DNA from: Limisphaerales bacterium
GTDB lineage: Bacteria > Verrucomicrobiota > Verrucomicrobiia > Limisphaerales > JAJOIW01
Assembly (NCBI GenBank): GCA_965657355.1
Contig: CBFHOE010000010.1
Coordinates: 22,326 to 86,325, forward strand
Length of the DNA: 64,000 nucleotides
Direction: 5' to 3'
The translations under genes and the position numbers were made by a program. Within the stretch, counting starts at the first letter, position 1. Every line of letters begins with the position of its first letter. Positions 32,701-35,700 of the stretch are shown piece after piece. The notes under the pieces were generated by a model that made no database searches, was not told where the DNA came from, and saw only the letters and a program-made list of their open reading frames with translations.

Positions 32701-35700
32701 GATTTAGAAATATCCGTGGAGGGCTCCCCTCTTGTTCCGCCGAATTCGACAACATAGTGATAGATTTCATTCTCAGCATATAAAGAGCGATCATTCCACG
32801 TAGCATCCTCGTTAATTACCGCGTAATCTTCTGGAGCTAAACTTATAAGGTTATCAGGAGCCGAAATATCCCAGTTGTTGTATTTGGTGTCACTTGCCAG
32901 ACCTCCGATAGCCCCGCTCTCACTCGTGTCACTTTCCCCTCCGTTTTGTATGAAGAATAAATCTCCACTTAAAGCATCAGCATATGATTCGGGGCCAGTT
33001 ACCCACCGCCATTTTTTGTCTTCGGCTGCATCATGCGCTCCAATCCAACTTTTATTATCATTGAGGAGACCGGCGATATGTGCGTTCTCCTCAGCACTTG
33101 AGATAGTAGCAAGATAGCCTGTGAGGCCCATGTGGGTTTGAACTTCTGCTAAGTTCTTAGCTTCGAGCCAACTCAGAGCAGACGACCTTTCGATGACTTT
33201 GTAATAATGAGGTTCGTCATAGGAATTATTGGGACCATAAAAAGGTTGCGCATCGCCCACAGTGATAGAAAACTCACGCGTCGCACCATTGCTATCACCT
33301 TGATTTTCGTTGACGTAGACCACTTGGCTAATGGCCGATTCGTAAGATGACATAGGAGCATCCCCAGTAAATTGGAGCACACCAGTATTGACGTCGTATG
33401 CCCAACTCAAACCCTCAACACTACCTGAATTACCATCTTGTCCGGCAATGCCAAGTTTTTCAGTTAACGGGTCAAATGAGGTATTGAAAGAGACAGAGGC
33501 TTCGGTCAAATTTTGGGACTCGACATTGGATGTTAGTGAAAAATTTGGATCAATGGCATTACCGTCGCTAGAAAACGTTTCGGAAGAAGTTTCCCTCACG
33601 GTCATATCCACAATTGCCGATTCTTCATTCACAGTTTTTATTTCGGCGATCTTAGCACCAAGCTGTGTTTCAGCCGGTTCCGGGGTTCCGGCTGTAACTC
33701 CTAAATACACTTCAGTCGCACCACCGAAGATATCATTTACAATATCTTTTTGGATAGTTTGTCTTAGCTCTCCCTCGTAATAAACTTTCAATTCCTGACT
33801 ATCTGAATCCCACTCCATGGAAACTCGGTGCCACTTACCATCTTCTACATTATCGTTCTCTGAATTAATCGGAACCGGAGAAGGCCCAACGGATGAAATA
33901 ACACCATTCTCAAAAAATCCAGTGTGGTCAGATGCCGGCTCACCATTGGAACTTGAAGTTTTAAAATAAGCTCCAAAACTTGGAGTAATAGCTCCTACAC
34001 CTAAATTTTCTTCTTGTCCATCGGAAGAGGCAGTATCTCCATTACTAGAATTTTGTAAAGATATCGTTATGCCACCTTGGTCGGAATCTTGATCTCCAAA
34101 ATATAATTCAGTATCGATAAAAAAGTTGTTTGCCAGATCGACTCTGTTTGTTGACCATGTTGCCCCCACTTCATTGAGATTGCCATTACCAGGGTTATTA
34201 TTGCCAGTAAGCTGGAAGCTTTCAGTGGCAGGACGAAAAGCCGACCCCCCCGTGGTTTCATATTCATCGACAGATACTACACCCAGGCAGCAATCATTGG
34301 CTTCGTCTGTAGATACCAACCCTATTGGAGCACGAACACCATCATTCAAACCGGAATCCGGACCATCTGTGAACTTCGAAGAAGAAATGGGATCTCCAAC
34401 TGAGTAAGAGTGAGTTATTTCGACTTTATAAATCACCCCCGAGCCATTATTTGATGCGTATAAATTACCTCTGTCATCAAAATAAACAGCTCCGTACGCG
34501 TCCCCAGATTCGCCATCCATTGCTTGGACGGGACCAATGTATTCCACAAGACCGGTAGATGGATTAATGCGAACCAAATTGTTGGTTTTTCTTTCCACAG
34601 AATATAACTGGTCATCTATAGGGTTAAATGCCCAGTCATGGATTTCCAAAGACTCCGATAGGCTAAGTTCCTTAATGACTGTCTTGTAGCTCGTTGAAGA
34701 AGGGTTTAAATCAATAACCACAACAATCGACTGCGAGTCATATTTTTGATCATCATCATCATCATCATCATCATCATCATCATCATCATCATCATCATCA
34801 TCATCATCATCATCATCATCATCATTTCTCCGAATTTTGACAGAACCGCGCATGTATAAGAAGCCAGAGGTATTGATATCTCCTACGAAATAGCCTCCAG
34901 GTTTAAGGCCTGTGATCGCAATTTCCTCAGCCACAAAATCCCCACCATATCGGATCAGTTTACTCGTCCTACCTTCCTCGTCACCTCGTGGATATCCCCA
35001 GATTGCTCCATCAAGAGTATTATAACCTGCAGCATTAACATCTCTATTAAATGTATTATCAACCAACAAGGTGGACTGCCCAGTGACCAGATCAACGGAA
35101 TAAATATCAGCTTCCTTCGTTTGAATCAGATAGGACCGGGTATCCAAAGGTATCGATGTCTGGGAGAATGGATTTGTATTAGCGACTTCTTCTTTTTGTG
35201 AAGTTAAAAGTCCTACGGATTGGATAGTAAAACCCAGAATCGCTCCGCCATTTGTTGTTTGGTCTTGCGGAGCGTTTGAATCCAATGTGAAAGAGGTGAT
35301 TTTACCATTTCGAAATTGAGCTCCAACACTCAATCCATCGGCGTCATTGTATTTGCCGTATGTTCCGCTGTCATTAAAGACGGCGTGGGAAATAACCTCT
35401 TGGTATTCGCTGCTGGTTTTAAAACCGTTGGTAGTATCAGATTTACCAAAATAACTGAAACCCACAGCTAAGAAACCATCATCGTTGTCGTCTGGCGCTT
35501 GTCCCAGATCCAAACTGGAGACAGTCTTTGACCAATTTCCTGGAATACCGTTAGTAAAATCGGAGGATGTGTTACGACCTGAGAATGTAACGCCCGCTGA
35601 TGATTGGTCTGCATTTTCAAATACAAAAGCCATCAAAACCGCATCGTCACCATCATTTGATGGAGTGTTGATATTGGTCAGATCTATTGAAATATCACCA

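Follow-up and report, generated by a model that had tools for sequence, protein, structure and literature searches.

Why should the gene for a giant secreted protein carry an unbroken run of a single codon, and is such a run an old acidic element of the protein, a device for tuning it or a by-product of mutation? The question is raised by a 64,000-nt stretch of contig CBFHOE010000010.1 from a Limisphaerales bacterium (assembly GCA_965657355.1; the whole stretch analysed is called the window below), in which an open reading frame (ORF) of 3768 codons contains 25 consecutive GAT triplets. We consider this tract to be a tolerated hypermutable insertion, a genuine in-frame (GAT)n·(ATC)n microsatellite, with a probability of roughly 0.78. 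This reading is carried by tract lengths that differ among nearly identical conspecific contigs, by homologues that lack any acidic run at the same site, and by the purity of the codons. The features on which the argument turns are as follows:

34749..34823, minus strand: (GAT)25 microsatellite encoding Asp1088-Asp1112, read on the minus strand as AAT-(GAT)25-CAA.
34728..34844, minus strand: extended hairpin loop SVKIRRN-D25-QKYDSQS, aa 1081-1119, predicted from alignments and a structural model.
34290..35132, minus strand: DUF6923 (PF21959) beta-propeller-like domain that hosts the tract, aa ~985-1265.
26778..38084, minus strand: 3768-aa ORF for a putative secreted multidomain protein, judged by its signal-peptide-like N-terminus and Pfam domains.
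37764..37793, minus strand: (GGCAAA)4-AGCAAA, in frame in the same giant gene and encoding GKGKGKGKSK, aa 98-107; (TTTGCC)5 on the plus strand.

The preliminary description of this DNA had reported a perfect, uninterrupted (GAT)25 at 34749-34823 within the 3768-aa ORF, and that account is exact: all 25 codons are GAT, with no GAC and no interruption. In the protein the run is preceded by ..FLYMRGSVKIRRN and followed by QKYDSQSIVVVIDLNP.., and the sequences flanking the tract in the window are ..TTCGGAGAAAT on one side and CAAAAATATGAC.. on the other. Tandem Repeats Finder delimits the array at 34749-34825 (period 3, 25.7 copies, 100% matches, score 154), and the exactly periodic run is 77 nt over the same interval, counting the AT of the preceding AAT codon. 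Only one other array with at least four copies occurs in the 64 kb, (TTTGCC)5 at 37764-37793; the same gene hosts both, and (GAT)25 is the sole long microsatellite of the window.

If the protein family had long conserved an acidic element at this place, the codons of the run should bear the marks of age. Asp-rich segments do occur elsewhere in the giant protein, and nothing more speaks for this alternative. Outside the tract the gene uses 212 GAT and 99 GAC codons for Asp, and under this usage the chance that 25 Asp codons would all be GAT is (212/311)^25, or ~7e-5; the two other DDDD runs of the gene mix GAT and GAC. The residues adjoining D25 are neither D nor E, so the tract did not grow from an older mixed acidic patch. 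Comparison with relatives refutes the alternative outright and leaves it a probability close to nil. In all 28 aligned DUF6923 homologues the site is a tight turn of 3-7 residues (for example YYLKGGG-TTFYKIDL), with no acidic run and no long loop. A HMMER search, exhaustive over 1.84 billion representatives, found the same wider architecture in two proteins only, P0106 (1374 aa) and P0107 (3471 aa), which are 51% and 46% identical to the window protein over aa 640-1300; P0106 is MCD8533934.1 from a Verrucomicrobia metagenome-assembled genome (MAG) and, of the named orthologues, stands nearest to the giant protein. The tract site reads LYLKSSSRVEIIDL in P0106 and MILKHNRKQEAQMIDL in P0107, without an acidic run in either, and the DUF6923 matches of both are continuous. 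Compared with these orthologues, the window protein has ~12 additional non-Asp loop residues as well as the Asp run. Because the 28 homologues and two orthologues have the tight turn and no acidic run, the tract is, on these alignments, a lineage-specific insertion. The preliminary description had argued from codon purity for recent slippage in place of an old selected tract and had recommended a comparison with orthologues; that comparison bears the argument out.

Further searches yielded no closer relatives. With the tract deleted, the DUF6923 region used as a query for close orthologues returned just a 36%-identical Vallitalea protein, protein-pattern scans of genome contigs and metagenome contigs found no relatives, and a profile built from the window protein and its two orthologues retrieved nothing closer. 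The homologues that were found are DUF6923, LamG or Ig proteins, all without D-runs. The two orthologues also have a PA14/fibro-slime domain between DUF6923 and an L-type-lectin-like domain (aa ~800-1045 in P0106, aa ~850-1100 in P0107). The window protein is without this domain, its DUF6923 domain leading almost straight into ..DCCLGVVSVDEYE.. (aa ~1265-1290).

Where in the protein does the run sit? With the tract present, the DUF6923 profile matches only aa 1121-1251 (profile positions 111-231 of 234, 56.3 bits against a gathering cut-off of 27); with the tract deleted, the match is rejoined into one stretch (positions 34-232 of 234, E 8.8e-22, 78.5 bits against the same cut-off). AlphaFold2, given 49 homologues, modelled aa 985-1290 with a mean predicted local distance difference test score (pLDDT) of 82.8 and a predicted template-modelling score (pTM) of 0.81. 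In this model the tract is coil at pLDDT 55-66 between two 11-residue strands at pLDDT ~90, FLYMRGSVKIR and YDSQSIVVVID (model residues 91-101 and 131-141). The top 50 Foldseek matches in PDB are overwhelmingly beta-propellers (Pizza6, virginiamycin B lyase, LRP6 YWTD, NHL, Kelch), with template-modelling (TM) scores of ~0.32-0.49, and the fold matches include six-bladed propellers. A search of PDB sequences with the family profile gave marginal propeller matches only, with no close solved homologue, and a literature search on DUF6923 found nothing. These results agree with the earlier proposal that the tract behaves as a surface loop inserted into a propeller-like module, and on the model the poly-Asp loop would be solvent-exposed; the domain probably tolerates it.

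We next turn to whether the length of the run varies. Conspecific contigs were reached through the DUF481 protein of the window (taken from its second Met) and two small neighbouring ORFs, exact look-up having given no match for the 3768-aa product, for the DUF481 protein taken at its longest ORF, for the Ig protein of 619/615 aa or for a 736-aa protein. The contigs that reach the tract are 99.5-99.9% identical to the window and read as follows:

L121/L133 (ERZ17174984): (GAT)18, at 13686-13739 of L121.
L122/L134 (ERR868456, Tara): (GAT)13, at 13686-13724 of L122.
L138 (Logan, ERR9649222, k=31): (GAT)6.
L132 (Logan, ERR15116658, k=31): contig stops inside the tract after 9 units.

The tract is pure GAT in all of them, and the flanks are the same except for one single-nucleotide polymorphism in L138. 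Over 19.4 kb, L121 differs from the window by 44 mismatches, and L138 does so by 22 over 10.1 kb; in both comparisons indels occur only in the GAT tract and in (GGCAAA)n. L121 and L122 have 2 mismatches in 6,956 nt, yet their tracts are 5 GAT units apart. The length polymorphism is real: 6 versus at least 10, 13, 18 and 25 units. Since the unit is one codon, the ORF is open in every allele and only the length of the loop differs. The preliminary description had thus correctly anticipated an in-frame length polymorphism and had correctly set the tract apart from an on/off switch.

The second repeat of the gene, (GGCAAA)n, is robustly polymorphic between conspecific contigs as well. The long form is found in the window, L123 and L132, and a form 12 nt shorter, GGCAAA(AGCAAA)2, in L121, L122, L124, L125, L128 and L138, while a longer allele breaks another Logan contig assembled at k=31 (L137), which stops inside at least 5 GGCAAA units. 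In each of the three N-terminal modules of the protein, listed below, a basic loop occupies the site that corresponds to the (GK)n repeat of module 1.

Several points weigh against a tolerated, hypermutable insertion. Only five assemblies reach the tract, and the lengths are read from assembled contigs. Three of the lengths coincide with floor(k/3), namely 25 for k = 77, 18 for k = 55 and 13 for k = 39/41, and may be assembler ceilings of one longer tract. Solvent exposure depends on a predicted model in which the loop itself is of low confidence. Every sampled haplotype keeps the tract, none having zero units, and this retention, together with the presence in this gene of another charged repeat that is polymorphic, could signal selection for variability.

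The assembly question can be addressed directly. If all length differences were artefactual, each assembler would have truncated a single longer monomorphic tract by taking the shortest route round the repeat loop. When the real flanks were put into a toy de Bruijn graph and the shortest path was followed, any longer tract did collapse, at k=77 to 25 units, at k=55 to 18 and at k=39/41 to 13. These are exactly the values of the window (periodic run 77 nt), L121 (56 nt) and L122 (41 nt). L132 breaks inside the tract, as expected at k=31 for at least 10 units. L138, by contrast, was also assembled at k=31 and spans the tract with a periodic run of 20 nt, or 6 units, well under the 10 units at which k=31 reaches its limit, which requires real reads that cross the whole run; the 6-unit allele is real and cannot be a ceiling artefact, and the polymorphism is real for the same reason. 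Among SPAdes-named public contigs with (GAT)>=15, there is no pile-up at the ceilings (runs of 55-57 nt in 3 of 34, runs of 77-79 nt in 0 of 34), and the general rate of such artefacts looks low in public contigs with SPAdes or MEGAHIT names. An origin of all the differences in assembly is therefore very improbable. It is quite possible, on the other hand, that the upper three values alone are artefactual, the true lengths being at least 13, 18 and 25. The 'k127_' in the name of L122 may reflect the MEGAHIT k list of 27, 37, 47 and so on, without 39 or 41, from which names of this form usually come; if so, 13 would be no ceiling.

For the window itself, the run of 77 nt is the longest resolvable at k=77, so that 25 is possibly a lower bound set by the assembler. 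The 25 units first described are thus exact as a statement about the assembled sequence, but as a copy number they may be a lower bound and are to be read as 'at least 25'. The warning that the tract is a hotspot for assembly error was apt, given a contig that stops inside it and three assembled lengths that coincide with k-mer ceilings. Since those three copy numbers equal floor(k/3) for standard k, lengths of long microsatellites in short-read MAGs are best taken as lower bounds.

What process would generate such alleles? Slipped-strand mispairing is a general mechanism in bacteria (PMC7015867, PMC9990875), and the indels of the tract, which are whole codons with unchanged flanks, follow the pattern that it predicts; we infer replication slippage as the mutational mechanism. 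Folding of the 75-nt tract as single-stranded DNA gave a minimum free energy of 0, with no structure on either strand. Plain misalignment is therefore sufficient, and a hairpin-driven expansion model was dropped because neither strand folds. The tract would have arisen within the lineage by slipped-strand expansion at the turn of a beta-hairpin of the DUF6923 propeller, and it would continue to gain and lose whole GAT units. Each allele would keep the ~3.77-kaa ORF open, because one repeat unit is one codon, and would differ from the others only in the length of its disordered poly-Asp loop, from D6 up to at least D25. The length variation is probably in large part a by-product of hypermutability and not a tuned function.

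Could the variation nonetheless be selected? The tract and the (GK)n repeat might together form a 'contingency' element that varies loop charge, with consequences for the binding of cations (Ca2+/Mg2+) or particles or for evasion of phages and grazers; the preliminary description had suggested a tunable acidic spacer that may bind Ca2+. The only two microsatellites of the 64 kb share this gene; each encodes a charged loop and each is polymorphic, and at least 6 Asp are present in all sampled haplotypes. Prokaryotic acidic low-complexity regions have been discussed as cation-coordinating clusters (PMC6821194), and, by analogy, the length of the D-repeat of human asporin is a functional polymorphism. 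Against this, the orthologues P0106 and P0107 do without the acidic loop, the allele sample is tiny, and long pure (GAT)n runs encode poly-Asp in unrelated bacterial proteins, apparently cytoplasmic enzymes included, a distribution that fits mutational opportunity. On balance we regard a selected contingency element as unlikely.

An effect on translation is a different possibility, in which the length of the poly-Asp run would set the share of ribosomes that finish the 3768 codons through intrinsic ribosome destabilisation (IRD), perhaps in a Mg2+-dependent manner. Consecutive acidic residues cause stochastic abortive translation in E. coli, more so at low Mg2+ (Chadani et al., bioRxiv 10.1101/2021.02.02.429294), and D25 would fill most of the 30-40-residue exit tunnel. 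The same study reports that acidic runs in the middle of an ORF are mostly silent, the preceding nascent chain stabilising the ribosome, and the tract begins only at codon 1088, which makes such a role highly improbable. Selection on charge and an effect on translation could also be combined in a two-part 'charge rheostat', in which selected, hypermutable poly-Asp and (Gly-Lys)n loops would continually vary the electrostatics of an exposed propeller and the N-terminal module, in the service of cation or particle binding or of phage evasion, and/or Mg2+-sensitive ribosome destabilisation would set the yield of full-length protein. We give this little credence. If true, it would carry the logic of contingency loci over to codon repeats that keep the frame, in a non-pathogenic bacterium from the environment.

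The insertion sits in a gene for a putative large surface protein. Pfam finds DUF6923, four copies of Laminin_G_3, two Ig domains, Big_9 and a C-type lectin-like domain in the 3768-aa protein, and a region at aa ~1270-1465 is L-type-lectin-like/LamG-like, with a Pfam match to Laminin_G_2 and one below threshold to Lectin_L-type_dom. Its N-terminal part is laid out as follows:

38016..38084, minus strand: signal-peptide-like segment MKIKSALVLVLLLLLSPLITESA, judged by eye without a predictor.
36000-38015, minus strand: three paralogous N-terminal modules of ~230 aa each, aa ~24-700, starting MHFLDKDGN.., LHFLDKNGN.. and MHFLDNNGE...

Over 2974 codons, the window and L121 have 8 synonymous and 12 non-synonymous differences and 0 frameshifts, and the L121 product is 3757 aa long (3768 - 7 - 4). 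From these counts the gene looks functional and seems to evolve under moderate purifying selection, with a rough ratio of non-synonymous to synonymous rates (dN/dS) of ~0.5 by our own estimate. Two further, more divergent conspecific contigs at ~98.2% identity (L126 and L130) have eight single-base indels clustered in ~80 nt upstream of the start (38109-38186), which may be a variable leader or promoter.

The neighbourhood of the gene bears on the identity of the host. The neighbours with assigned content are these, along with the DUF481 protein and a DUF11/CARDB protein:

24913-26772, minus strand: 619-aa protein with five Ig-like domains, its start 5 nt past the stop of the giant gene.
10854-15390, plus strand: pair of a PSCyt1/PSCyt2/PSD1 protein (~1000 aa) and a DUF1501-type partner.
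20378-24820, minus strand: second such pair.
2586-3998: sulfatase.
7578-8717: AhpC/3-keto-disaccharide-hydrolase fusion.

The gene for the five-Ig 619-aa protein is, from its spacing, probably co-transcribed with the giant gene. Of the two DUF1501-type partners, Pfam confirmed the domain in 20378-21832 only; the partner at 13903-15390 had no match when scanned against NCBIfam. An Rfam scan of the window returned no match. The PSCyt/PSD1/DUF1501 pairs, the sulfatase and the 3-keto-disaccharide hydrolase are content typical of Planctomycetota and Verrucomicrobiota. Proteins identical to window neighbours are found on TARA and other marine-metagenome contigs, and by gene content, provenance and the nearest named orthologue the host is most plausibly an uncultured marine Verrucomicrobiota-like bacterium. 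One further length difference among conspecific contigs lies between genes, a T7/T8 homopolymer at window ~44244 versus L123 5677, between the 736-aa gene and an mlaE-like gene.

How common are such tracts? We scanned one genome per species, 185,579 prokaryotic species in all, for (GAT)>=15 and found at least 120 loci, with 15 to 171 units among the matches listed. At least 24 of the loci encode poly-Asp in ORFs that stay open for at least 50 codons to either side, some of them in large proteins that contain propellers or are secreted, such as a 2666-aa Kelch/PQQ propeller protein (L080) and a protein secreted by the type IX secretion system (T9SS; L056), and isolates with such in-ORF poly-Asp include Pseudoalteromonas denitrificans (L017) and Shimia. 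Long (GAT)n tracts are therefore rare per genome and nevertheless recurrent. The host proteins of the other loci are unrelated to that of the window, and several of those loci sit in older mixed-codon acidic runs, whereas the window tract has no flanking D or E. In E. coli K-12 no trinucleotide repeat exceeds five units (PMC7015867).

Two public MAGs, one of Emcibacteraceae OB4 (L002, L013, L023, L026, L045, L046 and others) and one of Metamycoplasmataceae (L009, L016, L033, L041, L071 and others), supply a large part of the listed (GAT)>=15 matches, many of them on 500-900-nt contigs. Their excess suggests contamination, binning artefacts or genomes unusually rich in the GAT repeat. Pure GAT-type tracts of 171 units in Candidatus Nitrosopumilus OX638319.1 (L057, 1012-1524) and of 75 units in Bacillus sp. 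N9 (L052) stand in long-read or isolate assemblies, so prokaryotic trinucleotide repeats can far exceed short-read resolution.

Public assemblies alone thus reveal, in the gene for a giant surface protein, a codon-unit microsatellite whose copy number ranges from 6 to at least 25, set against a few dozen substitutions in the surrounding 10-19 kb and with other indels only in the second repeat of the gene. This makes the tract a clean natural case, outside pathogens, of in-frame hypervariability in the length of a loop, and a convenient marker for typing strains of the host population.

Among known systems, the closest in kind are the contingency loci. Like them, the tract is a perfect short-unit tandem repeat in a surface-protein gene; nearly identical genomes carry different numbers of units, and indels occur in the repeats alone. 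Classical contingency loci have units of 1, 2, 4 or 5 nt and turn a gene on or off, whereas here the unit is a codon and only loop length changes, so the tract is not an ON/OFF phase-variation switch; they are also found in host-adapted pathogens, whereas the host of the tract is a free-living marine bacterium. In the SD regions of the staphylococcal Sdr/Clf proteins, a dipeptide is encoded by a degenerate unit of 18 nt. These SD repeats form a stalk between folded domains and share no sequence homology with the tract, which is a one-codon homopolymer inside a folded propeller domain and for that reason is not an SD-repeat stalk. What the two have in common is that they are length-variable, acidic, in-frame repeats of bacterial surface proteins, adhesins in the staphylococcal case (PMC3324548). 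The D-repeat of human asporin (ASPN) is likewise poly-Asp in a secreted protein with a length polymorphic in the population; asporin is eukaryotic and unrelated, its run is N-terminal with a narrower allele range where ours is an internal loop, and no homology of the giant protein to a known D-repeat protein was found, so the likeness is an analogy only. IRD sequences such as MgtL share with the 25 Asp of the tract a series of consecutive acidic residues in the nascent chain, but active IRD motifs are N-terminal and short, whereas the tract at codon 1088 is far from N-terminal. Set beside these systems, the tract is an in-frame hypermutable simple sequence repeat of a bacterial surface protein, an element of a familiar kind that calls for no new mechanism.

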